Source: Bacteroidota bacterium (GTDB lineage Bacteria; Bacteroidota; Bacteroidia; Flavobacteriales; Flavobacteriaceae). From it: 64,000 nucleotides of DNA. The stretch's first letter is position 1, and the number at the start of each line of letters is the position of its first letter. Made by a program: the position numbers and the translations under genes. Of this stretch, positions 7,535 through 22,407 are shown piece by piece. A model generated the notes under the pieces. That model was given only the letters and a program-made list of their open reading frames with translations, had not been told where the DNA came from and did no database searches. Location of the stretch: NCBI GenBank assembly GCA_043778045.1, contig JAYWGW010000059.1, positions 552 through 64,551 on the forward strand. The letters are read 5' to 3'.

Positions 7535-8701
7535 ATGGCAAGTAATTTCTTTTTAAAAACCTTACAAATTTTCTTTTTTAATAAAAGAAATATAATCGGT
7601 ATGTACGTTGTTTTGGGAATTGTTACCGCAATCTTGAAATATACAAATAATACCTATAACAACTATTTGATATTTAGAAACGTATATCATCATTTTGTAG
7701 GGTCGACAAATTTATATTCGGAATACCCTTCACAATACTTTGACACCAATCATTATGGACCATTTTTTGCAATTATTATAGCGCCATTTGCGTTATTCCC
7801 AGATTGGTTAGGATGTGTTTTATGGAATGTATTTAATGTGTTGATTTTAATTCTTGCTATTTTTAAATTGCCATTAACTGAAAAGCACCAAAAAACAGTT
7901 GCCCTACTTTGTATAAATGAAGTTGCAACTGCACTGTTTTCTTATCAATTTAATGTTGCAATAACAGGAATGTTATTATTTACATTTATTTTTTTAGAAA
8001 AAAACAAACTTTTTTTGTCAAGTATAACAATCATAATAGCTACGTTGACAAAGCTTTATGGTGTAATTGGATTTGCTTTTTTCTTTTTTATAAAAAACAA
8101 ACCAAAATTTATAATGATATTTGTCATTACTTTGGTGTCTCTGATTTTTTTGCCTTCAATTTTATCGAATCCAACGTTTTTGTTACAAAGTTATATTGAC
8201 TGGAAAGTTTCTCTACTTGAAAAAGCTGATTTTAACACAACCAGCTCAATGGCAGACATTTCATTATTCGGACTTATAAGTGCTTGGTTTGGTTTAAAAA
8301 TTAACGTTTTATATGGTTTGCTAATAGGAGCGTCGGTGCTTGCCATTGCGTTGTTGAGAAAAAACCAACATGATTATTTAATTTATAGGATATTGATTTT
8401 ATGCAATACGTTACTTTGTATCGTACTTTTTAATACTAATGTTGAATCACCGACATTTGTTATAGCATTTTTAGGAATTGCAATTTGGTACGTAACTGTG
8501 CCAAAAACAAATTGGATTAATTTTTTATTGATTTTTGCTATTGTTCTTACAAGTTTGTCGGCTACTGATTTGTTTCCAAAAGTTTTAAAAACCATGTATA
8601 TTCAGCCTTTAAAATTAAAAGTTTTGCCTTGTATATTTATTTGGATTGATATTTCATGTAGATTAATAAAGCATGAATTTTCAAAGTATCCTGTTAATTA
8701 A
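7535..8701 (+). CDS. GT-C fold membrane glycosyltransferase (GT87/DUF2029-like)
   Basis: Multi-TM protein with YNNYLIF, NLYSEYP, HYGPFFAIIIAPF and TKLYG motifs. Confidence 0.75.
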   Translation: MASNFFLKTLQIFFFNKRNIIGMYVVLGIVTAILKYTNNTYNNYLIFRNVYHHFVGSTNLYSEYPSQYFDTNHYGPFFAIIIAPFALFPDWLGCVLWNVFNVLILILAIFKLPLTEKHQKTVALLCINEVATALFSYQFNVAITGMLLFTFIFLEKNKLFLSSITIIIATLTKLYGVIGFAFFFFIKNKPKFIMIFVITLVSLIFLPSILSNPTFLLQSYIDWKVSLLEKADFNTTSSMADISLFGLISAWFGLKINVLYGLLIGASVLAIALLRKNQHDYLIYRILILCNTLLCIVLFNTNVESPTFVIAFLGIAIWYVTVPKTNWINFLLIFAIVLTSLSATDLFPKVLKTMYIQPLKLKVLPCIFIWIDISCRLIKHEFSKYPVN

Positions 8702-8709
8702 CGAATAGT

Positions 8710-9444
8710 ATGATTGAATTAAAAAAAGATATTGAATTAAAAAACTGGAATGTTTTTTGGGAAAAATCTCCAGATGGATTTAACGAAATTATGCAAAAGT
8801 CAACCGCTTTTGTTGGAAAAAAGTTATTAGATTTGAAAATTGTAGATAGCAATAGTGCAATTTTGGATTTTGGTTGCGGACCTGGTTTTTTGGTTGATTG
8901 TATAAAAGATAGCGCGAAATCAATTGTAGGAATTGATATTTCGGAAGCTTATATCGATATTTGTAAAAACAAGTTTAAGACTAATAATAACTTAAGTTTT
9001 GAAGTTATAAAACCTTATGATGTTACAAAATTATCAGAAATTATTCAAAATAAAAATGTTGATACCATAATAATATTAAGTACTTTACAATATTACAACA
9101 CTGAAAAAGATGTTGAAAATTTGATATTATCCTTGAAGAATGCATCTGACAACCAAAAATTCAGTTGTATTATTGCAGATATCATCCCAAAAAAACATTC
9201 TTTTCTTTCAGATGTAAAAGATTTAATTTTGTATTCAACAAAAAAAGGCTTTTTAAAAATCCTGTTTAGATTTATATTGTACACTTTCAATTCTGAATAT
9301 AGCAAATACAAAAAGAAAGGACTTTTAGAACTGGACTATTCATTTTTTGAAAAAGTGGCATTTGAAAATAATATTACAGTTACCAAAATGCAACAAATAA
9401 CTATTCATTCGAAAAGATACAGTATTTGTTTACATTTTAACTAA
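8710..9444 (+). CDS. Class I SAM-dependent methyltransferase
   Basis: ILDFGCGPG, GIDIS and LSTLQY motifs. Confidence 0.8.
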   Translation: MIELKKDIELKNWNVFWEKSPDGFNEIMQKSTAFVGKKLLDLKIVDSNSAILDFGCGPGFLVDCIKDSAKSIVGIDISEAYIDICKNKFKTNNNLSFEVIKPYDVTKLSEIIQNKNVDTIIILSTLQYYNTEKDVENLILSLKNASDNQKFSCIIADIIPKKHSFLSDVKDLILYSTKKGFLKILFRFILYTFNSEYSKYKKKGLLELDYSFFEKVAFENNITVTKMQQITIHSKRYSICLHFN

Positions 9445-9511
9445 ATGCATTATTTAATTATTTTGAAAACTTTAGATCAATCCAAAATTTAAATTCTGAA
9501 TTAAAATAAAT

Positions 9512-10453
9512 ATGAATCAAAAATTAGTAAGTATTTTAATTCCTTGTTTTAATGAAGAGCAAAACATTAAAAAAATTACCGATGAAATTGCTGTTGTATT
9601 TAAAGATACTGACTTATTGTATGAAATTATTTTTATCGACGATGGAAGCAATGACGGATCAATTACGATTATAAATGAAATCGTTTTGCAAAACAACAAT
9701 ATTAAATTTATTGAATTCTCTCGAAATTTCGGAAAAGATTTTGCGTTAAAAGCAGGTGTGGATTTTTCAAATGCAGACGCTATTGTAATGATAGACGCCG
9801 ATATGCAACATCCACCAAAATTAATTTTGCAAATGATTGACAAGTGGAACGACGGCTTTGAGGTTGTCTACGCGTTTAGAAGTATAAACAACCCGGACGC
9901 AAATTTTATCAACCGATTTTTTTCTAAAACATTCTACAAGTTAGTTAATTTACTGTCAGATATTAATTTAGAGAATGGCATTGCGGATTATAGATTAATT
10001 GATAGAAAAGTAATCAACTCATTAAAAAAAATTGATGAAAATGAACTTTTTTTACGAGGTATGGTAAAATGGATTGGTTTCAAACAAGTTGGTATTCCTT
10101 ATAAACCTGAACAAAGATTAAATGGCGAGACTACATATTCCACAAAATCATTGTTTAAATTAGCAATTCACGGATTAACATCTTTTAGCACAAAGCCTCT
10201 CTATTTATCAATAGTTTTAGGGTTGTCTCTCTCTTTTATTGCGTTTATTTTGTATGTGTTTTATGTTTTTTACAGTGTTTATTTCGATCTCGCGATCTCT
10301 GGATGGGCATCGGTTATTTTCACAATTGTACTTTTTGGTGGTTTAAATCTTATCGTTTTAGGAATCATTGGTGTGTATGTTGGCAAACTTTTTATGCAGT
10401 CGAAAAATCGTCCAAACTATATTGTCAGAAATACAAATATCCAAAAATTATGA
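9512..10453 (+). CDS. GT2 polyprenol-phosphate glycosyltransferase (GtrB/ArnC-like)
   Basis: IPCFNEE, IDDGSND, SRNFGK, DADMQHPP and DYRLIDR motifs; two C-terminal TM helices. Confidence 0.88.
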   Translation: MNQKLVSILIPCFNEEQNIKKITDEIAVVFKDTDLLYEIIFIDDGSNDGSITIINEIVLQNNNIKFIEFSRNFGKDFALKAGVDFSNADAIVMIDADMQHPPKLILQMIDKWNDGFEVVYAFRSINNPDANFINRFFSKTFYKLVNLLSDINLENGIADYRLIDRKVINSLKKIDENELFLRGMVKWIGFKQVGIPYKPEQRLNGETTYSTKSLFKLAIHGLTSFSTKPLYLSIVLGLSLSFIAFILYVFYVFYSVYFDLAISGWASVIFTIVLFGGLNLIVLGIIGVYVGKLFMQSKNRPNYIVRNTNIQKL

Positions 10454-11229
10454 TATTACTTAGTTTTGATATTGAAGAATTTGACATGGCTTTCGAATAT
10501 GGGAGAGACATTTCTTTTGAAGATCAAATTGCAATTTCTCGGGAGGGCACCATTATAATTTTGGATTTATTGCAAAAGCACAAGGTTCAAGCCACTTTTT
10601 TTAGTACCGCAATTTTTGCTATTGCAGCACCGGATTTGATAAAGAGATTAGTAGCTGAAGGCCATGAATTAGCATCTCATACTTACTATCATTCCGATTT
10701 TAAAAACGAAGATTTACTACTTTCACGTCAGAAACTTGAGGAAATATCTGCATCACGTGTTATTGGACTTCGCATGCCAAGAATGTATCCTGTTGATGAT
10801 ATGGAGGTAGAAAAAGCAGGTTATCTTTACAATTCGTCCATAAATCCAACTTATTTACCAGGGAGATATAATCACTTTGATAAGCCTCGAACATGTTTTA
10901 AAAAACAAAAAGTATGGCAAATTCCAGCGTCAGTAAGTCCAATTATTCGGTTTCCATTGTTTTGGCTGTCATTTCATAATTTGCCATTATGGTTGTATAA
11001 AATGCTTTGCGTGTGGACTTTGAAAAAAGATAAATACTTAAATATATATTTTCACCCATGGGAATTTACGGACTTGAAAGACAAAAATCGCTTCGGTTTT
11101 CCGAATTATGTTTCCAAAAATTCAGGTTTAGATATGAAAGTTCGTTTGGAAAATTTAATTATTTGGATGAAAATAAAAAATTATAATTTTTGCGATTTTA
11201 AAGATTTATTAGTTACTTTTAAAATTTAA
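10450..11229 (+). CDS. Polysaccharide deacetylase family protein (DUF3473-like C-terminus)
   Basis: LSFDIEEFD, ATFF, GHELASH and YFHPWEF motifs; ATG at 10450 overlaps the upstream TGA. Confidence 0.85.
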   Translation: MILLSFDIEEFDMAFEYGRDISFEDQIAISREGTIIILDLLQKHKVQATFFSTAIFAIAAPDLIKRLVAEGHELASHTYYHSDFKNEDLLLSRQKLEEISASRVIGLRMPRMYPVDDMEVEKAGYLYNSSINPTYLPGRYNHFDKPRTCFKKQKVWQIPASVSPIIRFPLFWLSFHNLPLWLYKMLCVWTLKKDKYLNIYFHPWEFTDLKDKNRFGFPNYVSKNSGLDMKVRLENLIIWMKIKNYNFCDFKDLLVTFKI

Positions 11230-11277
11230 TTTTGGTTATAATTTGTTTAAAGCAAAAACTGCAATATATTTTTTTGA

Positions 11278-13188
11278 ATGAATTCACTACCAAAAATTTC
11301 AGCTTTAGCCATCGTTTTGAACGAAGAATATAACATTCGAGATTATTTGGGAAATATGTCTTTTGCAGACGAAATTATAGTTGTAGACTCGTTTAGCACG
11401 GATCAAACTTTAGACATAATCAAAAATGAATATCCTAAAGTAAAGGTTTTTAAAAAAAAATTTAACGATTTTTCAAGTCAACGAAACTACGCTATAAATC
11501 TTGCAAGCAACGATTGGATTGTTTTTTTTGATGCCGACGAAAGAATAACAGATAAAGGCATACAAGAAATTAAAAAGGCAGTTTTAAACAAACAAAAAAT
11601 AGATGCTTTTTGGGTGAGACGTATTTTTTATTACGGTAAAAAACCAATGCATTATGGCGGAAAAAACCAAGACAAAGCCATTCGTGTTTTTCGAAAATCT
11701 CGTTGTCGATATTCTAACAAATTGGTTCACGAGCAGCTTATTGTACGCGGAAAATGTAGTGTTTTAAAAGAACATTGCCATCATTATTCTTTTCGAAATA
11801 AAGAAGATTTTCTTCTGAAAAGGTTGCAATATTCAAGACTTAAAGCCACAGAATTATATGCAAAAGACAAAAAACCCACTCTTTTTCATTTTTATTTTAA
11901 ACCGACCTTTCGTTTTTTTAAGCATTATTTTATTGAGCTTGGCGTTTTAAATGGCAGAAACGGTGTTGATTTGTCGCTGATTATGGCAAAACATGTGAAA
12001 ATGCGTTACGTGTATTTGCGCGAAATGCATCAAAACCACAAGTTGTTTACACACGATAAAACATCAATACAAAGCAAAAATATTGGCTACGAAGCTAAAA
12101 GGATTTTTCATAATGGCACTGGACTTGGAAATTACAGCAGAGATTTAATTCGTATTTTGAGTACATATCACAATCAAAACAGCTATTTTCTATACAATCC
12201 GAAACCAGCCGATATTGAACGATTTACAACAAACGAAATTAATGTTTTTGAGCGTTTGCCTGTAAGATTTCTAAGCAGAATTTTTTACAACGTTTGGAGA
12301 CAATTCACGATTATAAAAGATTTAAAAGCAGATAAAATTAATATTTTTCATGGACTTTCGGGCGAATTACCAACGGGCTTAAGAAAAGCTGGAATAAAAA
12401 GTGTAGTTACCATTCATGATTTAATCTTTATTCGATATCCGCATTTTTATAGTTTTTTTGACCGCAAAATTCATTTTTATAAATTTAAGAAAGCTGCTAA
12501 ATCAGCGGATAAAATTATTGCGATTAGCCAACAAACAAAAAAAGATATCATAAAATTTTTGCATGTTCCAGAAAGCAAAATTGTTGTCGTTTACCAAGGT
12601 TGTCACGATGTTTTTAAAACGCAATATTCGCTGCAAGAAACGCGAGATGTTGCGGAAAAATACAACTTGCCAATCGATTTTATTTTAAATGTTGGAACTA
12701 TTGAAATTCGTAAAAATGTGCTTGCAGTGGTTAAAGCTATTGAAAAAATTGACACTTATTTGGTTATTATTGGTGCCGATACAGCCTATAAACAAGAAAT
12801 ATTGGACTATATTCAAGAGCACAATATTCATCAAAAAATATTTTTTGTTGCGGGATTATCTTTAAAAGAATTGGCAATAGTATATCATTTAGCAACAATT
12901 TTTGTTTATCCATCGCTATTTGAAGGGTTTGGCATTCCAATAATTGAAGCGCTATATTCAAAAACACCTGTTATAACTTCTTATTCCGGAGTGTTTCCCG
13001 AAGCGGCTGGACCAAACAGTATTTATGTAAATCCTACAGATATTGCCGAAATAAAACAAAATATAGAGCTACTTTTGCAAAATCCTGATTTGAGACAATC
13101 TATTGCAGCAAAAGGCTTTGATTTTGTGCAAAAATTTAATAATGAAAACATCTCAAAAAATATAATGGATGTTTACGAAAACCTATAA
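11278..13188 (+). CDS. Bifunctional GT2 + GT4 glycosyltransferase fusion
   Basis: N-terminal half VVDSFSTD, WIVFFDADE and VHE (WaaE-like GT2); C-terminal half IGYEAKRIFHN.TGLGNYSR, VTIHDLIF and PSLFEGFGIPIIEA (GT4). Confidence 0.88.
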   Translation: MNSLPKISALAIVLNEEYNIRDYLGNMSFADEIIVVDSFSTDQTLDIIKNEYPKVKVFKKKFNDFSSQRNYAINLASNDWIVFFDADERITDKGIQEIKKAVLNKQKIDAFWVRRIFYYGKKPMHYGGKNQDKAIRVFRKSRCRYSNKLVHEQLIVRGKCSVLKEHCHHYSFRNKEDFLLKRLQYSRLKATELYAKDKKPTLFHFYFKPTFRFFKHYFIELGVLNGRNGVDLSLIMAKHVKMRYVYLREMHQNHKLFTHDKTSIQSKNIGYEAKRIFHNGTGLGNYSRDLIRILSTYHNQNSYFLYNPKPADIERFTTNEINVFERLPVRFLSRIFYNVWRQFTIIKDLKADKINIFHGLSGELPTGLRKAGIKSVVTIHDLIFIRYPHFYSFFDRKIHFYKFKKAAKSADKIIAISQQTKKDIIKFLHVPESKIVVVYQGCHDVFKTQYSLQETRDVAEKYNLPIDFILNVGTIEIRKNVLAVVKAIEKIDTYLVIIGADTAYKQEILDYIQEHNIHQKIFFVAGLSLKELAIVYHLATIFVYPSLFEGFGIPIIEALYSKTPVITSYSGVFPEAAGPNSIYVNPTDIAEIKQNIELLLQNPDLRQSIAAKGFDFVQKFNNENISKNIMDVYENL

Positions 13189-13190
13189 AC

Positions 13191-14072
13191 ATGAAAGTTG
13201 CAGGATTTACATTTATTCGGAATGCAGTCCAAAATGACTACACAATCGTTGAGGCCATTTTGTCTATATTGCCTATTTGCGATGAATTTATTGTCGCTCA
13301 TGGAAATTCATCTGATGAAACTTTGGCATTAATTCAAAGTATCAAATCCGATAAAATTAAAATAATTCAGACTATTTGGGACGATACGCTTCGCGAAGGT
13401 GGGCGAACATTTGCACTTGAAACCGATAAGGCCTTTCAGGCGATTTCGACAGATGCAGATTGGTGTTTTTATATTCAGGGAGACGAATGTGTGCACGAAA
13501 AATATTTGGAAACCATAAAATCTGAAATGCAAAAATGTCTTTTACATGCAAAAATTGAAGGATTGCTCTTTAAATATAAGCATTTTTATGGCTCTTATGA
13601 TTTCTTCGCACATTCCCGACGTTGGTATCATAGAGAGATTCGTGTTGTTAGAAATTTACCTGAAATACACTCTTATAAAGACGCGCAAGGTTTTAGAATT
13701 AATGATAGAAAGCTGAATGTGAAGTTGATAGATGCTTACATTTATCATTATGGTTGGGTGAAACCTCCAAGCGGATTGACTAATAAAGTCAGAAATTTCA
13801 ATAAATTTTATACAAAAGATGACGCTCTTATTGAAGAAAAATATCCTGAAACCTCAGATTTTGACTATGGAAATGCCGATCAATTAATGAAGTTTGAAGA
13901 AACACACCCAAAGGTTATGCTTGATCGCATAGCAAAATCGAATTGGAAATTTTCTATTGATCCAACGAAAACCAACAAAAAATTGCCACTAAGAAGAAAA
14001 TTTTTAGCTTGGATTGAACAAAACACTGGCATAAGATTGTTTGCATACAAAAATTATAAAATCATTGCATGA
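13191..14072 (+). CDS. GT2-like glycosyltransferase
   Basis: GFTFIRNA, DWCFYIQGDE and YHYGWV motifs. Confidence 0.8.
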   Translation: MKVAGFTFIRNAVQNDYTIVEAILSILPICDEFIVAHGNSSDETLALIQSIKSDKIKIIQTIWDDTLREGGRTFALETDKAFQAISTDADWCFYIQGDECVHEKYLETIKSEMQKCLLHAKIEGLLFKYKHFYGSYDFFAHSRRWYHREIRVVRNLPEIHSYKDAQGFRINDRKLNVKLIDAYIYHYGWVKPPSGLTNKVRNFNKFYTKDDALIEEKYPETSDFDYGNADQLMKFEETHPKVMLDRIAKSNWKFSIDPTKTNKKLPLRRKFLAWIEQNTGIRLFAYKNYKIIA

Positions 14073-15064
14073 ATGCAAACGTAAGGTATAGTATTTCTGT
14101 TGTTTTGCCAAATTATAATGGCAAATCGCTTATGGAACAGTACATTCCATCGATTTTAGCCGCGCTGAATTTTTCGAAAATTGACTATGAATTTATTATT
14201 ATTGACGATTTTTCCACGGATGATTCCGTAAATTTTATAGAAAAAACGTATCCAAATATTTTATTGCTTAAAAACGATGTAAATAGTGGCTTCTCTAAAA
14301 CTTGCAATAACGGCATTTTCAAAGCGAAAAAAGATTTGATTTTTTTGGTAAATTCAGATGTGAAATTAACTGAAAACTATTTTGAAAATCAGTTGCAATA
14401 TTTTGATGACATCAATGCATTTGGCGTTATGGGTTGCATCATGAATTTTGACGGAAAAAAAATTGAAGACGGCGCAAGAATGCCTCGATATAAAGGTGGA
14501 AAATTTAAAGCCAATAAATTTTATTACTCAGAAAACCCACAAGATAAAATATACACTACTTATCTTTCAGGCGCAAATGCGCTAATTAAAGCTGATAAAT
14601 TGAAGCAAATTGGAGGTTTTTCAGAACTTTATTCGCCGTTTTATTTTGAAGATTTTGATCTCGGTTTGCGCGCATGGCAAATGGGATGGACTTGTTTTTA
14701 TGACCATCAATCGGTTTGTTACCACCGAGTTAGCGCATCGACCAATAATATGAACAAATCTAATTTTGTTAAAATCACCTACAATCGGAACAGTTTCTTT
14801 TTGCAAGCGATACATTTACAAGGACTTAGAAGAATCGTTTGGCTCTGTCAATTATTTACAACAACATTGTTTTCTCACTTATTGAAAGGTGATTTTTGGA
14901 TTTTAAAAAGTTTGCGCGATTTTGTAAACTCATATTCAGTTGTAAAGAAAGCTCAAAAAGATTTAAATTTATTAAAATCTAAATTCAACAGCGATGTTAA
15001 TTTAGATAAAATAGTCAATATTATTACAAAGTCCATAGAAAATAAAGACATTAATTGGCTGTAA
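14069..15064 (+). CDS. GT2 family glycosyltransferase
   Basis: VVLPNYNG, IDDFSTD, NSGFSKTCN, VNSD and EDFDLGLRA motifs. Confidence 0.88.
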   Translation: MNANVRYSISVVLPNYNGKSLMEQYIPSILAALNFSKIDYEFIIIDDFSTDDSVNFIEKTYPNILLLKNDVNSGFSKTCNNGIFKAKKDLIFLVNSDVKLTENYFENQLQYFDDINAFGVMGCIMNFDGKKIEDGARMPRYKGGKFKANKFYYSENPQDKIYTTYLSGANALIKADKLKQIGGFSELYSPFYFEDFDLGLRAWQMGWTCFYDHQSVCYHRVSASTNNMNKSNFVKITYNRNSFFLQAIHLQGLRRIVWLCQLFTTTLFSHLLKGDFWILKSLRDFVNSYSVVKKAQKDLNLLKSKFNSDVNLDKIVNIITKSIENKDINWL

Positions 15065-15074
15065 AATCAAACAA

Positions 15075-15884
15075 ATGGAGCAATCGATAAAAATTGAAAA
15101 AGATATAATGTATGAATATGAATTTTCGATATGTACGCTTGTTACTCGTAAGCAAGAATATACGGAAATGATGCAATCGTTTGTAAAAAAAGGTTTTACA
15201 TCTGATTGCTGTGAATATTTATATATAGATAATTCCGAAACTACAACCTTCGACGCTTATCAAGGTTTGAATGTTTTTTTACAAAAAGCAAAGGGTAAAT
15301 ATGTTATTTTGTGTCATCAAGATATTATTTTGCACGATAAGGACATTCATGATTTATCTAAAATGATTGCTGAAGTTGAACAGAGAGACTCAAAATGGGC
15401 GGTTTTAGCAAATGCAGGTGGCGTTAATTTGAAATGGATTGCGACACATATTACTCAAAATTCGGGACGAATTATTGAAGAAAATCATTTGCCACTTCAA
15501 GTAAAAACGGTTGATGAAAATTTTATCGTCGTAAAAAACAGTGCCAATTTATCGTTGTCAAATAACTTAAAAGGTTTTCATTTTTATGGAACCGATTTGT
15601 GTTTAATAGCAGATATTTTAGGATTTAATAGCTACGTTATTGGTTTTAATTTGACTCATAAAAGTAATGGAAAAATCGATCAAAGTTTTTATGAAAGTAA
15701 GAAAGCAATAGAAACTAAATATAAAATGGCACTTAGAAAACGTTTCGTTACGACAACTTTTTCAAGGATTTGTTTCACAGGGAATTCACTTCAATACTAT
15801 TTTTATAATGCAGCAATTGTATTGTTTTTAGTTCGACAATACTACAAATTTTTCACTAAAAAGAAAGATTATCAGCTGAAATAG
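15075..15884 (+). CDS. GT-A-like hypothetical protein (possible glycosyltransferase)
   Basis: YVILCHQD (DxD-like), GFHFYGTDLC; position in the glycan operon. Confidence 0.55.
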   Translation: MEQSIKIEKDIMYEYEFSICTLVTRKQEYTEMMQSFVKKGFTSDCCEYLYIDNSETTTFDAYQGLNVFLQKAKGKYVILCHQDIILHDKDIHDLSKMIAEVEQRDSKWAVLANAGGVNLKWIATHITQNSGRIIEENHLPLQVKTVDENFIVVKNSANLSLSNNLKGFHFYGTDLCLIADILGFNSYVIGFNLTHKSNGKIDQSFYESKKAIETKYKMALRKRFVTTTFSRICFTGNSLQYYFYNAAIVLFLVRQYYKFFTKKKDYQLK

Positions 15885-15887
15885 ATG

Positions 15888-16688
15888 TTAATTTTTATAG
15901 TCATTCTCAAAACCTTTATTATTTAAATTACCTTTTTCGTCTGTTTTCCACGAACTTGACAAATTGGTTGTTTTGATGTAATATTTTTGTTCGTCAGTAA
16001 GATTTTCAAAATCAATATACCATCCTCCATGATAGGCTTGATAGGGTTCGTCCGTACGAATTGCTTTGTAAAATCGCTTATTTTTATATGTATAATTTGG
16101 CTTATACAGTGCAAAAGTAGTGTCAGTTGCGGATTTAAATTGTCCATTGGTGATTTTTTTTTGCCAAAATTGAGATTCCCATTTTACAATTGCCGTTTTG
16201 TTTGGATTGGTATCAGGAATATCATCTATTTTTAAGCTTAAACCTGCTTTTGTAATACGACTGTTTTGGTTTAAAACTGTCATTAATTTTTTGACAAAAT
16301 TTATGGGACAGCTTTCTATTGGCAATATATCTGCATCAGTGACAATGTAATAGCCTTTAGAATACATCTCGAAAATTTCTTTTTTCTTCCAAAAAACCAT
16401 GTGACCGATATTGTCTGTAAGTTTGTGTATTTTAACCTGATTTTGTATCGTAGTAAAATATTTCAATAATGGCGGGTAAGTCGAATTATTATCAATTATT
16501 ACAATATTTTTGTACTCATATTTTAATAGTAATGACACCAATTTTTCCAAATAAAATAGTTGATTGAAACTTATAATTATGATTGGAATTGATTGATAAT
16601 CAGCAATTTGCTTATAAGCGTAATTATTTGAAAAAAATAAAAATATTTTATAAAAGATAGCAAAAATAATTTTCAAATAGGTTTTCAT
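15888..16688 (-). CDS. GT2-like glycosyltransferase
   Basis: IIIISFNQ, IIDNNSTY and YIVTDAD motifs. Confidence 0.75.
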   Translation of the reverse strand: MKTYLKIIFAIFYKIFLFFSNNYAYKQIADYQSIPIIIISFNQLFYLEKLVSLLLKYEYKNIVIIDNNSTYPPLLKYFTTIQNQVKIHKLTDNIGHMVFWKKKEIFEMYSKGYYIVTDADILPIESCPINFVKKLMTVLNQNSRITKAGLSLKIDDIPDTNPNKTAIVKWESQFWQKKITNGQFKSATDTTFALYKPNYTYKNKRFYKAIRTDEPYQAYHGGWYIDFENLTDEQKYYIKTTNLSSSWKTDEKGNLNNKGFENDYKN

Positions 16689-16698
16689 ATTAAAAAAT

Positions 16699-17544
16699 CT
16701 ATGACAATTTTGTAAAAACAGGTTTTGTATAATTTACTTCCTTCGTATTTACAAAGGTTGATAATATTGCTTTCAAAAATTTCCATCTTATTTTTTGTGT
16801 TGCTACATAATTCAATTGTTGCAGGCGTTTTGTTTTAATATTTCTAACCCAATTTACTTCTGAGAGAAACATGGGAAAATGATTTTCGAAAACCTTATCT
16901 TCTTCGGCAATAATTTTTTGTTTATTATCTTTTAAACTCGATAATCCATTATTATCAAAATCAGAAATTGTTATATTAATATGTTGGTATGACTCGTTTT
17001 GCTTGCAAATGCAATAAATAAAAAATTCCCAATCGGCAACAATTTTTAAAGCTTCGTTATACAAAAAATAAGTATAAAACAGCTGACGTTTTATGAAAGT
17101 TGCGGGATGCGGAAGCGAATTTGTGACAAAATATGAAAAATCTAATTTGGTTGGCGTGATCAATTTTGATATTCTGACATCGTTTTTCGACAAAAACATA
17201 TTACCATATACAAAGCTATGTTGGGTAGTAAGGTAAGGTAAAGTGTGTTCTAAAACATTGTTGTCTGCAAAGCAATCTCCACTATTTAGAAAAAGCAAAT
17301 ATTCTCCCGTTGCCTTTTTAATGCCTTTATTCATGGCATTGTATATTCCCGTATCTTTTTCGGAAATCAAATAGTCAATATTTTTAGCATTTTCTGCAAT
17401 GTAATCTGCGCTTCCATCTGTGCTTCCACCATCTATAACAATATACTCAAAAAATTTATTGGTCTGTTGTACAACGCTTTGCATTGTTTTTCGCAAACCT
17501 TCTAAATTGTTATAATTTATCGTTATGATGGAAATTTTATTCAT
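16699..17544 (-). CDS. GT2 glycosyltransferase (WcaE-like, putative deoxysugar transferase)
   Basis: ISIITINYNN, VIDGGSTDGS, EKDTGIYNAMNKG, FLNSGD and LPHPATF; start at 17544 just after the fcl stop. Confidence 0.88.
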   Translation of the reverse strand: MNKISIITINYNNLEGLRKTMQSVVQQTNKFFEYIVIDGGSTDGSADYIAENAKNIDYLISEKDTGIYNAMNKGIKKATGEYLLFLNSGDCFADNNVLEHTLPYLTTQHSFVYGNMFLSKNDVRISKLITPTKLDFSYFVTNSLPHPATFIKRQLFYTYFLYNEALKIVADWEFFIYCICKQNESYQHINITISDFDNNGLSSLKDNKQKIIAEEDKVFENHFPMFLSEVNWVRNIKTKRLQQLNYVATQKIRWKFLKAILSTFVNTKEVNYTKPVFTKLS

Positions 17545-17545
17545 G

Positions 17546-18466
17546 TTACAAAAATTTTTGCTTGTAAACCATTTCAATTCCTTCGCGTAAATCAATGGAA
17601 TGTTTCCAACCCAATTGATGCAATTTTGAGACATCGGTAAGTTTTCTGGGCGTTCCATCAGGTTTAGAATGGTCAAAAATAATTTCGCCTTCAAAACCTA
17701 CAATATCTTTAATCATTGATGCCAATTCCAAAATGCTAATTTCAATTCCAGTGCCAATATTTACAAATCCTTGTTCAGAAAAATGCAGCATCAAATATAC
17801 GCAGGCGTTTGCCATGTCCGTTGCATGCAAAAATTCGCGTAGTGGCGTTCCAGTTCCCCAAACGGTTACATTAGGCGAATTATTGGTTTTTGCTTCATGA
17901 AATTTTCGTAACAATGCGGGCAAAACATGAGATTTCTCTAAATCATAATTATCATTAAAACCATATAAATTCGTTGGCATTACTGATATAAAATTTGATC
18001 CATATTGCGCTCGAAAAGCATCGCACATTTTTATTCCTGCAATTTTTGCAATAGCATAAGGCTCGTTTGTTTCTTCTAAAATGCCTGTTAAAAGCGAATC
18101 TTCTGACAAAGGTTGTGATGCAAATTTTGGATAGATGCAAGACGATCCTAAAAACATCAATTTTTTTACAGCATGTTTATGACATTGAAAAATAACATTA
18201 CTTTGAATCATCAGATTCTCATAAATAAAATCTGCTCTGTACGTATTGTTCGCCACAATTCCACCAACTTTGGCTGCAGCCAAAAAAACATATTCGGGTT
18301 TTTCTGTTTCGAAAAAATGTGCAACCGCATGCTGATCAATCAGATTTAATTCAGATGATGTGCGAGATATTATGTTATTATAACCTCTTTTCTGCAAGTC
18401 CGCAACAATGGCACTACCGACCATGCCTCGGTGTCCAGCTACATATATTTTAGAATGTATATCCAT
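17546..18466 (-). CDS. fcl: GDP-L-fucose synthase
   Basis: [39 protein letters not shown] and SHVLPAL motifs. Confidence 0.95.
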
Positions 18467-19558
18467 TTACTTTTTGTAGTTTTTTAGATATTTTTCTTTC
18501 TTGAAAATCTCTAAATCCGATTCCATCATTTCTTTTACGAGCATGTCTAAAGTATATTTTGGGCTCCACCCTAAGTTTTTCTTAGCTTTTGAGTTGTCGC
18601 CAATCAAAAGTTCCACTTCCGTCGGTCGGAAATATGTTGGATCAATTTTCACAACTTCTTGACCAATTTCAAAATGATAGTCAGCATTTGATGATGAAAC
18701 TACAGTTGCAATTTCGTTGATTCCTGTTCCATTAAATGCAAGTTCTACGCCAACTTCTTTAAAAGCAAGTCGAATGAAGTCGCGCACACGAGTGGTTACG
18801 CCTGTTGAAATCACGTAATCTTCGGGCGTGTCTTGTTGCAACATTAGCCACATGGCTTCGACGTAATCTTTGGCATGACCCCAATCTCGTTGCGAATCAA
18901 TGTTTCCCATAAACAAAACGTCTTGCATGCCGAGCGCCATTTGAGCAACTGCACGCGTGATTTTTCGGGTAACAAATGTTTCGCCACGGCGTGGACTTTC
19001 ATGATTGAACAAAATTCCGTTGCATGCAAACATTCCGTAGGCTTCGCGATAGTTTACGGTTATCCAAAAGGCATACATTTTCGCAACCGCATAAGGCGAA
19101 CGCGGATAAAATGGCGTTGTTTCTTTCTGTGGGATTTCTTGCACCAGTCCATAAAGTTCTGATGTCGAGGCCTGATATATTTTAGTTTTTTTGGTCAGTC
19201 CCAACAAACGTACGGCATCAAGAATCCGTAATGTGCCAATTCCGTCAGTGTTTGCGGTATATTCAGGCACGTCAAAACTCACTTTCACGTGGCTCATCGC
19301 GCCAAGATTATAAATTTCGTCTGGTTGCGTTTCTTGAATGATTCTTATCAAATTCGTGGAGTCGCTTAAATCGCCATAATGCAACTTAAAATGTTGATTT
19401 TCAATGTGTGGATCTTCATAAATGTGGTCAATTCTTTGCGTGTTGAAGAGTGAACTTCTGCGTTTTATGCCATGAACCATATATCCTTTTGAGAGCAAAA
19501 GTTCTGCTAAATAGGCACCGTCTTGTCCTGTTATTCCTGTTACTAAAGCTACTTTCAT
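18467..19558 (-). CDS. gmd: GDP-mannose 4,6-dehydratase
   Basis: [32 protein letters not shown] and [16 protein letters not shown] motifs. Confidence 0.97.
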
Positions 19559-19606
19559 TACTGTATGTTTATTAATTTCTGCAGTTGGTAAAAATTTTAA
19601 ATTTTG

Positions 19607-20770
19607 TTAAAAGAATTTCGGAATTGCAACTTCTTTAAATCTATCTGTAACAAATTTTATTTTTTCTTCATCTAAATATAAATGATTTGGAAGATAAAGC
19701 CCAAAATCATGAATAATATCAGCTACTTTTAACGGCGTATGTCCATATTTTTTGATCCAAAAAGGTTGCTTGCCCATACTTCCACAAATCAGCGGTCGAA
19801 CTTCAATATTGTGTTTTTTTAGATGATTGAAAACTTCAATTCTGTTTTCTACAATTGTTCCAAATGCAAAACTTGATAATTCGTCAAAATCACTTTGCTG
19901 GCTCCAATATTTACCCTCCAAAAATTTGTTGTAAAATTCAAAGTTTTTCTGCCTTACTTGCGTTATTTCGTCCATTTTGTCCAATTGCGAAATACCAATA
20001 AATGCGTTCAGATCAGTGGAACGCAAGTTAAATCCAGGATAATAGAAGGTATAATATTCTCGAACATCGTCGATATTATATTCATCTTTCCATTCTTTTT
20101 TGTAATTTTCATCAACGTCTCTTGACCAGCCATGTGAGCGAATAGAGAGCATCAAATTATATAATTTCGTGTCATTCGTTACGACCGCACCGCCTTCTAT
20201 TGTTGAAATATGATGCCCATAATAAAACGAAAATGATCCTGCGGTAGACAAATTGCCAGCTTTCTGTTTGCTCGGATGAGATGTTCCGAGTGCTTCGCAA
20301 GCGTCTTCAATAAGCACAACATCATATTTTGTGCACAGTCTATGAATTTCGTCCATGTCGTTTAGATGTGCCAAAACATGAACAATAATCAGAAGTGCAG
20401 GTTTCTCTTTGATGAAAAGTTCTTCTAATTTTATAGTATCAACGCCTAAATTTCGATTGTTGCTATCACACAAAATAACATCAAATCCAAACTGCATAAA
20501 TGGCGAAAGTGTTGTTATCCAACTTATTGCGGGAACCACAACTTTTTTGTTTCGCAGATATTCACCTTCTAAAAGCGCATATGCCATCAGCAAATTGGCA
20601 GACGAACCGCTGTTTACCAATACGCAATGTTTCGAGCCAAGATATGTGGCAAATTTCTTTTCAAATTCAATAACTAACGGACCTTTTGTGAGTTGTAACG
20701 TCGTTGGAATCCATTGGCTAAGTGCCAAAAGTTCTTCGTGTGTTATAGTGTTTTCTGCTAATCTTATCAT
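19607..20770 (-). CDS. DegT/DnrJ-superfamily PLP enzyme, ColD-like GDP-4-keto-6-deoxy-D-mannose 3-dehydratase
   Basis: VNSGSSANLLM, PAISW.TT, EDACE, SFYYGHHISTIEGG (His at the usual Schiff-base Lys position), IRSHGWSR and PGFNLR. Confidence 0.8.
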   Translation of the reverse strand: MIRLAENTITHEELLALSQWIPTTLQLTKGPLVIEFEKKFATYLGSKHCVLVNSGSSANLLMAYALLEGEYLRNKKVVVPAISWITTLSPFMQFGFDVILCDSNNRNLGVDTIKLEELFIKEKPALLIIVHVLAHLNDMDEIHRLCTKYDVVLIEDACEALGTSHPSKQKAGNLSTAGSFSFYYGHHISTIEGGAVVTNDTKLYNLMLSIRSHGWSRDVDENYKKEWKDEYNIDDVREYYTFYYPGFNLRSTDLNAFIGISQLDKMDEITQVRQKNFEFYNKFLEGKYWSQQSDFDELSSFAFGTIVENRIEVFNHLKKHNIEVRPLICGSMGKQPFWIKKYGHTPLKVADIIHDFGLYLPNHLYLDEEKIKFVTDRFKEVAIPKFF

Positions 20771-20772
20771 GG

Positions 20773-21576
20773 TTATTTTTTCTTGATTAATAGTTTTCTG
20801 AATAATTTACTTTGTAATAATTTTTTGTTGAATTTAGTCAGAAAATAATATAAACGGGCATCTTTGTATGCTTTTGCAATTTTTAAAGTTTTTGTCTTAT
20901 CGTTCATTGCATTGATAGTAATTGAATTTTCATGCGCTCGAAAAACGGCTAAGGGTTCGTTTACATATCCATATTTTGGATAATCAATTGTCGCCATCAA
21001 AGAGAAAAGAATGTCGGGACCGACGCCATGATAGCTATTTTGAGAAAAAGGAACGCTTCCAACAAACAAGTTGTCTATCAAAAGTTGCTTTCTAAACGTT
21101 CCTGCGCATGGTGATGTTAAACTATTGTAGTTAAATTTCGCCAATTCTTCTGATTTAAAAATCCCTGTTGTATTTTGAAAATTAAATCCAGAACCTTCAA
21201 AACGATTTTCACTTTCAAAGTATATTTTTGCATCCGTAAACACGCACCCAACTTCATCAGTAAAAAGTTTTAAACTTTTTTCAATAAAAGTTGGTTCAAT
21301 CCAATCATCATCAAAATTTAGGTGAACCAAATCATTTGTTGTGTGTAAAATTCCGTCCAACCAACAAAAATGAACGCCAGAGTCAAGCTCGCGACGGACG
21401 TATTTTATTTTGTCTCCATATATTTTCACTGCCTCGGGCGTATTGTCGGTGCTTCCGTGGTCGCAAACAATAATTTCGCATGCCACCGTCTGTTTTAAGC
21501 AAGAATCTATGCATTCCATCAGATATTTTGCTCTGTTGAAAGTAGGTATAACAATGGAAATACTCTGATTAGTCAT
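20773..21576 (-). CDS. GT2 family glycosyltransferase
   Basis: IVIPTFNR, VCDHGSTD and LNFDDD motifs. Confidence 0.85.
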   Translation of the reverse strand: MTNQSISIVIPTFNRAKYLMECIDSCLKQTVACEIIVCDHGSTDNTPEAVKIYGDKIKYVRRELDSGVHFCWLDGILHTTNDLVHLNFDDDWIEPTFIEKSLKLFTDEVGCVFTDAKIYFESENRFEGSGFNFQNTTGIFKSEELAKFNYNSLTSPCAGTFRKQLLIDNLFVGSVPFSQNSYHGVGPDILFSLMATIDYPKYGYVNEPLAVFRAHENSITINAMNDKTKTLKIAKAYKDARLYYFLTKFNKKLLQSKLFRKLLIKKK

Positions 21577-22357
21577 TATTTAAAATGGATTTTAATACAC
21601 TTATATCGGCATTTAGATGATTTTGTTTTTCAAAATGATCGTATGTAAAGTCTAATTTTTTCGGAGCAATGCTTTGAACAAATTCCATAATTTTTTGTGA
21701 TTTTCCTGATGCAATATTGATTGTTCCTATTGTATTTTTTTCAACAAGTTTAATTATGATGTCACAAACTTCGTCAGCATTCAAAAAATCTCGTGTCGAT
21801 AAAGCTCCAAATAGTTGAAATGGTTTTGTCAAATCTTCGTTTTGAAACCTTTGTATTAGGTTAGGATATAAAAAAGGTGGCTTTTGCGTTTCATGATAAA
21901 AACTAAATATTCTACCAATGCATAAATTAAAATTAGAATTATTTTTTTCATAATCATTCAAAACCAACTCACTCATATATTTCGTCAGTCCATAGGAATT
22001 TATTGGCGCTACTGCGTCATTTTCCTTCAGTGGATTTTCAGTGCTTTTATAAACATGACTGCTACTTGCATAAAAAAAATAAATGGGTCTGTTCAAATGC
22101 GAAATTGCCTTTATTAAATTTATTGTACCCGAAACATTCACTTCATAAGCAGTTGGTAAGTTATTTTGAACGTCTTTTACAGCAACTTTCGAAGCAAGAT
22201 GAATGATTTTTGATATTGGATTTTCGGTCAGCCAATTTTTTATATCGCCAGAATTTGTAATGTCGCCATCAAAAACAGAGACGTTGATGTTGCTTTCTAA
22301 AAACTTAGTTACTAATATTTTGCCTAAAACACCATTTCCGCCTGTAATGCCAATCAT
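21569..22357 (-). CDS. Short NAD(P)-dependent sugar epimerase/reductase (extended SDR)
   Basis: ITGGNGVLG, IIHLAS, YASSSHVY and YGLTK (YxxxK) motifs. Confidence 0.85.
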   Translation of the reverse strand: MIGITGGNGVLGKILVTKFLESNINVSVFDGDITNSGDIKNWLTENPISKIIHLASKVAVKDVQNNLPTAYEVNVSGTINLIKAISHLNRPIYFFYASSSHVYKSTENPLKENDAVAPINSYGLTKYMSELVLNDYEKNNSNFNLCIGRIFSFYHETQKPPFLYPNLIQRFQNEDLTKPFQLFGALSTRDFLNADEVCDIIIKLVEKNTIGTINIASGKSQKIMEFVQSIAPKKLDFTYDHFEKQNHLNADISVLKSILNND

Positions 22358-22399: not shown

Positions 22400-22407
22400 C
22401 AAATATA
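22400..22407 (-). promoter_or_regulatory. -7 promoter element of the leftward glycan operon
   Basis: caaatata = TATATTTG on the minus strand, with a TTTG (-33-like) about 12 nt further upstream. Confidence 0.55.

Follow-up and report, generated by a model that had tools for sequence, protein, structure and literature searches.

3,6-Dideoxyhexoses are strongly immunodominant surface sugars, and to our knowledge only two bacterial routes to them, one CDP-based and one GDP-based, have been described. In the CDP route, the E1/E3 enzymes (RfbH/AscC with AscD) use Fe-S chemistry and lead to abequose, paratose, tyvelose and ascarylose, and in the GDP route, ColD and ColC of Escherichia coli O55/O111 and Yersinia pseudotuberculosis lead to GDP-L-colitose. 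In Campylobacter jejuni HS:5/HS:11, GDP-3,6-dideoxyheptose is made by a GDP-linked 4,6-dehydratase, a ColD-type pyridoxal 5′-phosphate (PLP)-dependent C3-dehydratase and a separate NADPH-dependent C4-reductase, and it depends on the reductase which stereochemistry the product has; in vitro, all four configurations were obtained from ColD-type dehydratase products by varying the C4-reductase, with or without C5 epimerisation beforehand (PMC10440746). Here, we analysed a stretch of 64,000 nt from a member of the Flavobacteriaceae (assembly GCA_043778045.1, contig JAYWGW010000059.1, positions 552 to 64,551; hereafter the window), in which the minus strand from 22357 to 17546 encodes, in this order, a short-chain dehydrogenase/reductase (SDR) of 262 aa named SDR262, a family 2 glycosyltransferase (GT2), a DegT-fold enzyme of 387 aa, the GDP-mannose 4,6-dehydratase Gmd and a homologue of the GDP-L-fucose synthase Fcl. 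We propose, with a probability of roughly 60%, that the product of Gmd passes to the 387-aa enzyme acting as a ColD-like 3-dehydratase, then to SDR262 acting as a 4-reductase and then to the GT2, and that Fcl forms a GDP-fucose side branch. An earlier note on this DNA had read the region as a GDP-linked 3,6-dideoxyhexose pathway composed of a ColD-like enzyme, gmd, fcl and an extra SDR. All of these are there, and all five open reading frames (ORFs) are intact with exactly the coordinates reported in that note, but the GT2 between the SDR and the dehydratase was overlooked as part of the conserved unit: GT2 homologues of 46-77% identity adjoin the SDR in every locus examined.

The 387-aa enzyme matched PF01041 with 225 bits across residues 13-377, and so belongs to the fold-type I DegT/DnrJ/EryC1 family of enzymes that use PLP or pyridoxamine 5′-phosphate (PMP). 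Its best solved relative was ColD of E. coli O55 (2gms, 214 bits, E 3e-62), followed by E1 (135 bits) and perosamine synthase (119 bits), while its top NCBIfam match, RfbH, scored 200 bits and did not reach the cutoff of 423. The enzyme contains FSFYYGHHISTIEGG, which aligned with FSSFYSHHIATMEGG of ColD, the reference being the ColD chain in the PDB alignment. HMMER placed the first His of this motif (His186) in the column of ColD His188 (E. coli O55). In the wild-type chain 2gms the sequence here is FYSHHIATMEGG, and it is in exactly the column of the window His186 that the mutant chains H188N and H188K depart from it. The claim that a His occupies the position of the Schiff-base Lys of DegT aminotransferases was thereby confirmed, and the Lys that the earlier note had named as contrary evidence was not found at the catalytic position, where the alignment puts an invariant His across all three clades (A, B and C) of ColD-like enzymes described below. 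The HH, ED, HGWxR, NxR and ExRP motifs, and with them the PLP- and NDP-binding motifs, are likewise kept in these clades, and the residue at the position of ColD Ser187 is Gly in clade A and Ala or Gly in clade C. It was reported that Ser187 is not conserved among dehydratases, that this His is a hallmark of dehydratases, and that transamination by ColD required changes at both Ser187 and His188 (bioRxiv 10.1101/2021.09.04.459008).

The window enzyme shares with E1 the fold and the His-type 3-dehydratase character, but differs from it in being 50 residues shorter and in lacking the Fe-S cysteine insert. The E1 stretch CYCAPGCDNTC, presumably its Fe-S cysteine segment, is aligned to a gap in the window enzyme, which has five scattered Cys (49, 101, 146, 158 and 329) and no CxC motif, in agreement with the earlier remark that the extra length of Fe-S E1/RfbH enzymes is missing. 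Moreover, no ferredoxin-reductase (E3-type) gene was found in the cluster, the enzyme is linked to gmd and not to a CDP-glucose 4,6-dehydratase, and in the tree E1 clusters with Lys-type aminotransferases from the genome to which the window belongs. The DegT fold, the His in place of the catalytic Lys, the gmd linkage and the absence of both an Fe-S cluster and an E3-type reductase partner are features in common with ColD. Collectively, the catalytic His, the absence of the Fe-S insert, ColD as the best solved relative and the adjacency to a bona fide gmd support the assignment, already made in the earlier note, of this protein as a putative ColD-type, Fe-S-free 3-dehydratase acting on the Gmd product; its turnover of GDP-4-keto-6-deoxy-D-mannose is predicted from the gmd linkage.

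From pairwise identities and a maximum-likelihood tree, the ColD-like enzymes were divided into three clades, which are only 32-36% identical to one another and whose branching order the tree did not settle. Clade A comprises the window enzyme and its relatives (66-100% mutual identity), stands apart in the tree with a support of 98/96 and always occurs with SDR262 and the GT2. Clade B, classical ColD, comprises the E. coli protein and those of two Flavobacteriaceae genomes (66-80% identity), of which one is from the genus of the window, and has gmd and a diverged Fcl-like ColC candidate as neighbours; with 66% identity to E. coli ColD, the dehydratases of these two genomes (loci L023 and L024) group with it and represent true ColD orthologues with diverged ColC-like partners. 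The C. jejuni dehydratases (62-67% identical to ColD) also fall in this classical clade. Clade C was found with gmd plus either an Fcl-like protein, in two Flavobacterium genomes, or an SDR262 homologue and a GT2, in Caldisericia and on a contig that carries an STT3 gene too; the clade-C dehydratases beside these distant SDR262 homologues are only 33% identical to the window enzyme. In comparison with the characterised ColD proteins of E. coli and Y. pseudotuberculosis, the window enzyme reached ~35% identity and was not recovered as their orthologue. Besides its separately supported clade, the enzyme differs from classical ColD by the Gly at the Ser187 position. Judged from its sequence, the enzyme is predicted to work like ColD, yet it is no ColD orthologue but a member of a separate clade, a point that had escaped the earlier note.

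This clade is rare. Only one of 200 other genomes of the family (one per genus) matched the dehydratase at E<=1e-60, and that match was a classical ColD. In the genus, evidently Flavobacterium, clade A occurred in 5 of 200 other genomes with 85-86% identity. A sample of 400 other genomes of the phylum contained no SDR262. A wide distribution of the dehydratase in the family or phylum was rejected by these genome samples.

The evidence for SDR262 as the partner of the dehydratase comes from synteny. As the earlier note stated, this separate 262-aa SDR heads the operon, being the first gene of the run. The order SDR-GT2-dehydratase is kept in 18/18 close loci, which include those of freshwater Flavobacterium metagenome-assembled genomes (MAGs) and of F. 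cheonanense JCM 17069, the latter (L051) with an intact cassette that includes gmd-fcl, whereas gmd-fcl follows the dehydratase in only seven of the 18, one of these seven being decayed. Five small-genome relatives have a single fcl-gmd pair on another contig. All seven distant SDR262 homologues (49-55% identity) also adjoin a GT2 and a His-type DegT gene, in the order SDR-GT2-DegT or DegT-SDR-GT2, and in three of these loci wzm-wzt lies directly upstream, which suggests an ABC-transporter-dependent polysaccharide. The Caldisericia MAG GCA_018054005.1 (1.5 Mb) carries two paralogous Gmd-ColD-like-SDR modules on different contigs (L075:236-2789 and L066:4091-8001), with a Gmd score of 601 bits, and no Fcl orthologue was found in it, the best Fcl-like match being 25% identical. 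A Chitinophagales MAG (G401) without Fcl, which also lacks gmd, was discarded as uninformative since its assembly is probably incomplete. The decayed locus belongs to Flavobacterium sp. I-STPP5a (L055:8001-10900, NZ_VHLM01000050.1), where an IS1595-like transposase gene (298 aa) cuts the dehydratase after residue 318 and the downstream gmd and fcl are reduced to short remnants, making this cultured strain a natural knock-out for the cassette.

SDR262 itself belongs to a family in which no characterised or named member was found, and a literature search, with subscription journals outside its scope, retrieved no paper on this family or on 3,6-dideoxyhexoses in Flavobacterium. All its NCBIfam matches were far under the cutoff, the best being galE (83 bits, cutoff 262) and rmlD (56 bits, cutoff 224), and its best PDB sequence match had an E value of 6e-13. 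In an alignment of 27 family members (A1), the motif GxTGxxGxxG and the residues H101, Y122, K126, R149, S152 and H155 are invariant, and position 99 is Ser or Thr; R149, S152 and H155 lie in the block CIGRIFSFYH. The window protein reads GITGGNGVLG, S99, Y122 and K126, and the Rossmann motif and the Ser/Thr-Tyr-Lys triad are conserved in 27/27 members. The AlphaFold (AF2) model (predicted local distance difference test score, pLDDT, 95) gave as its top Foldseek match the reductase Rmd (2pk3; template-modelling score, TM, 0.87; 21% identity), although Foldseek separates reductase, epimerase and dehydratase folds poorly for this protein. Rmd (2pk3 and 6x3b, TM 0.85-0.87) resembles SDR262 in being a short extended SDR that acts on a GDP-4-keto-6-deoxy sugar, but SDR262 is 40-60 residues shorter and has the invariant His101 at the position of the Glu in the STSELY motif of Gmd. 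By its distance from the catalytic Ser, His101 also corresponds to Cys109 of Fcl; abstraction of the C5 proton is a function of this Glu in Gmd and of Cys109 in Fcl. Where Fcl has His179, the SDR262 family has Phe or Tyr, so SDR262 has one of the GMER-like epimerase residues and not both, and a role as C5 epimerase, for which His101 is the single support, is possible. An assignment of SDR262 as a 4,6-dehydratase was rejected because a His stands at the position of the STSELY Glu, where 4,6-dehydratases need an acidic residue, and because a true Gmd is always available.

The two remaining genes of the five are gmd and fcl, and here, as for the 387-aa enzyme, the profile matches are too strong for chance. 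Gmd scored 591 bits on TIGR01472, above the equivalog cutoff of 415, and is the only full Gmd in the genome. A Gmd-like protein of ~320 aa (35-41% identical to Gmd) is encoded near another SDR outside the window (G000:C65:29771-33197); it is possibly an Rmd-type GDP-D-rhamnose reductase and could be a third consumer of the Gmd product. The window Fcl scored 490.1 bits on NF047922, just below the cutoff of 500, matched the E. coli Fcl structure 1bsv with 394 bits, and keeps the GSSCIYP, YAIAK and SHVLP motifs, in which the catalytic residues Ser107/Cys109, Tyr136/Lys140 and His179 of E. coli Fcl are conserved. In comparison, the ColC-like proteins beside classical ColD scored 302-306 bits and those beside clade-C dehydratases 390 bits on the same model, and the window Fcl, only 36-41% identical to the ColC-like partners of classical ColD, does not have the diverged Fcl-like character of ColC. 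A second Fcl or ColC was sought in the window's genome, where only a generic SDR of 28% identity was found. The score and the kept motifs suggest that, as the earlier note had proposed, the window Fcl is by sequence probably a canonical GDP-L-fucose synthase. GT10 fucosyltransferase genes in two related clusters suggest that Fcl has a job of its own.

The region may then be read as a cassette that makes a GDP-linked 3,6-dideoxyhexose and transfers it, inside a surface-glycan locus. Gmd would convert GDP-mannose to GDP-4-keto-6-deoxy-D-mannose, as its family membership indicates. The 387-aa enzyme would then eliminate the hydroxyl at C3 via a Schiff base between PMP and the sugar, His186 serving as acid/base, to give GDP-4-keto-3,6-dideoxy-D-mannose, and PMP would be regenerated from glutamate as in ColD; this step is predicted from homology, the His, the absent Fe-S site and the gmd linkage. 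SDR262, and not Fcl, would complete the GDP-3,6-dideoxyhexose by an NAD(P)H-dependent reduction at C4, a role suggested by the invariant synteny, and the adjacent GT2 would pass the sugar to the growing glycan. Fcl would act in parallel, drawing on the Gmd product as well to supply this glycan with GDP-L-fucose. On this model the substrates, the order of the steps and the part played by the SDR are predictions, and SDR-GT2-dehydratase would be a conserved, horizontally moving unit in which gmd-fcl are optional passengers. The earlier note had offered two alternatives, an Fcl that doubles as ColC or an SDR that completes the pathway, and the second is better supported. It is favoured because the SDR and the GT2 are invariant neighbours of the dehydratase, Fcl is an occasional one, and the Caldisericia modules occur without Fcl; in addition, the closest solved fold to SDR262 is that of Rmd, a GDP-4-keto-6-deoxymannose 4-reductase. 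The arrangement of a ColD-type dehydratase followed by a separate C4-reductase resembles the C. jejuni pathway, which differs in its heptose substrate, in its larger reductases and in having a cupin C5-epimerase as a separate gene; no cupin gene was found in the window's cluster or in the Caldisericia modules. Unlike the ColD/ColC system, the constant partners here are a dedicated GT2 and an SDR that is related to ColC/Fcl by superfamily only.

Several points weigh against this pathway. The functions of clade A and SDR262 are predicted, and the nucleotide specificity is deduced from gene linkage only. The lead of Rmd in the Foldseek comparison is marginal, many extended SDRs scoring almost equally, and the sole Fcl-free example, Caldisericia, is a MAG, which may be incomplete. 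The cassette-linked Fcl proteins are 65-81% identical to one another across distant hosts, for which reason Fcl may be a functional part of the cassette and not a bystander, and every cassette-carrying Flavobacterium has an Fcl somewhere in its genome. Finally, rmlA/rmlB lie near the cassette in two loci (L069 and L070), the first of which has no gmd in the retrieved 8-kb flanks.

The two Fcl observations speak for a classical colitose pathway, in which Fcl would double as ColC by C5 epimerisation and C4 reduction and would yield both GDP-L-colitose and GDP-L-fucose, SDR262 having another task such as the formation of the second C4 epimer or of a different sugar for the neighbouring GT2. Fcl also abuts gmd downstream of the dehydratase here and in 6-7 relatives, and retains Cys109 and His179, which ColC-type epimerase/reductases would need. 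However, the invariant neighbour of the dehydratase is the SDR and not Fcl, Caldisericia has two Gmd-dehydratase-SDR modules and no Fcl, the Fcl-like partners of the other Flavobacteriaceae ColD-type clades are diverged (302-390 bits) and not canonical, and no other role for the SDR is apparent, so we regard this pathway as unlikely, although it is the strongest competitor.

The rmlA/rmlB genes, together with the mere ~35% identity to ColD, would suit an alternative in which the clade-A 3-dehydratase acts on a different NDP-4-keto-6-deoxy sugar (dTDP-, CDP- or UDP-linked, or a heptose) and the gmd linkage is incidental, serving fucose only. The Arg of the ExRP motif, tried as a GDP-specific residue, was dropped since this conserved Arg also occurs in CDP-specific E1, so that no GDP-specific residue was demonstrated. 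We nevertheless consider this alternative improbable, because the gene next to that of the dehydratase is gmd in the window, in both Caldisericia modules and in six close relatives, because gmd is part of the cluster in L077-L079, and because no other 4,6-dehydratase is linked as consistently. That the DegT-fold enzyme is instead an aminotransferase yielding a GDP-4-amino-4,6-dideoxy (perosamine-like) sugar, to which its fold, a would-be substrate shared with perosamine synthase and the Gly at position 187 (Ser in ColD) could point, is very improbable, as all members of the three clades carry the dehydratase-hallmark His in place of the Schiff-base Lys, both Ser187 and His188 had to be changed for transamination by ColD (10.1101/2021.09.04.459008), and the triad contains no N-acyltransferase.

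For the preferred pathway, with SDR262 as the finishing reductase, the candidate products are colitose (L-xylo), its L-ribo isomer, tyvelose (D-arabino) and the D-lyxo isomer, which the sequence cannot separate. A bolder and quite tentative suggestion is that SDR262 represents an uncharacterised family of GDP-4-keto-3,6-dideoxyhexose reductases and that the product is not colitose but a GDP-3,6-dideoxyhexose so far unknown from bacteria. This could be GDP-tyvelose, the D-lyxo isomer or, if His101 supports C5 epimerisation, the L-ribo isomer, which the cassette's own GT2 would transfer.

The five genes belong to a run of seven closely packed minus-strand genes (22357-15888; Table 1), in which the GT2 gene overlaps the SDR262 gene by 8 nt and the start codon of fcl directly abuts the gmd stop. 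A sequence 42 nt upstream of the SDR262 start codon matches TAnnTTTG, which we take to be the Bacteroidetes -7 promoter consensus. As listed, the ORF of the WcaE-like GT2 (16699-17694) starts with TTG and would overlap fcl by 149 nt; translation most likely begins at its Met51, an ATG at 17544 and 1 nt past the fcl stop, and the L055 homologue begins at the equivalent Met. Homologues of this GT2 come after the ColD-like gene, or after fcl where present, in all close relatives.

Table 1. Features of the minus-strand gene run in the window; functions given as proposed are predictions.
Feature	Position	Strand	Basis and remarks
Candidate promoter TATATTTG	22400-22407	-	pattern match to TAnnTTTG
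SDR262, short extended SDR, 262 aa	21569-22357	-	Pfam Epimerase and GDP_Man_Dehyd matches; proposed GDP-4-keto-3,6-dideoxyhexose 4-reductase, possible C5-epimerase
GT2 glycosyltransferase, 267 aa	20773-21576	-	Pfam PF00535, 80 bits; proposed dideoxyhexose transferase
Putative ColD-type PMP/PLP-dependent NDP-4-keto-6-deoxyhexose 3-dehydratase, clade A, 387 aa, His186	19607-20770	-	PF01041
Gmd, GDP-mannose 4,6-dehydratase, 363 aa	18467-19558	-	TIGR01472
Fcl, probable canonical GDP-L-fucose synthase, 306 aa	17546-18466	-	NF047922
WcaE-like GT2	16699-17544	-	Pfam GT2 domain from residue 55 of the listed ORF
266-aa protein, last gene of the run	15888-16688	-	no Pfam or NCBIfam match

The run converges on a plus-strand glycosyltransferase block (7535-15884), and the whole locus lies between tsaC/sua5 (22504) and dapD (6582). 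Genes for a flippase, a polymerase or an ABC exporter were not found within it; homologues of Wzm and Wzt lie on other contigs of the genome (an assembly of 3.1 Mb, 93% complete), and a ManC-like gene is also present there, both in line with the proposed pathway. At G000:C19:42454-44206 the Wzm homologue is directly followed by a 30%-identical SDR262 paralogue, the Wzt homologue being on a different contig (C73). Part of the plus-strand block (7535-11229) encodes a GT87-like membrane transferase, a methyltransferase, a GT2 and a polysaccharide deacetylase, and the small-genome relatives keep the GT87-like gene, the GT2 and the deacetylase in synteny. In a Logan contig of SRR8146599 (L077:1-12777), the neighbours of a clade-C SDR-GT2-dehydratase triad are a 903-aa oligosaccharyltransferase of the STT3/AglB type, a GT10 fucosyltransferase and a radical-SAM B12 enzyme; the locus may serve N-glycosylation with the same dideoxy sugar in an archaeon or a member of a candidate phylum.

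If the proposed pathway holds, ColC would here be replaced by an unrelated short SDR, which would be either a new enzyme for a known sugar or the source of a new sugar nucleotide, and a matched glycosyltransferase would be supplied for glycoengineering. The novelty would lie in a deep ColD-like clade, an uncharacterised family of predicted reductases and a dedicated transferase that appear to move together as a cassette. Should the product be other than colitose, this sugar class would be reached by a second route, GDP-based and Fe-S-independent, on a mobile three-gene cassette spread over Bacteroidota, Caldisericia and possibly archaea. The His-type dehydratases annotated as "aminotransferase" or "CDP-…-3-dehydrase" comprise no fewer than three deep ColD-like clades that differ in their partner enzymes, a division that is useful for annotating O-antigen clusters in metagenomes.

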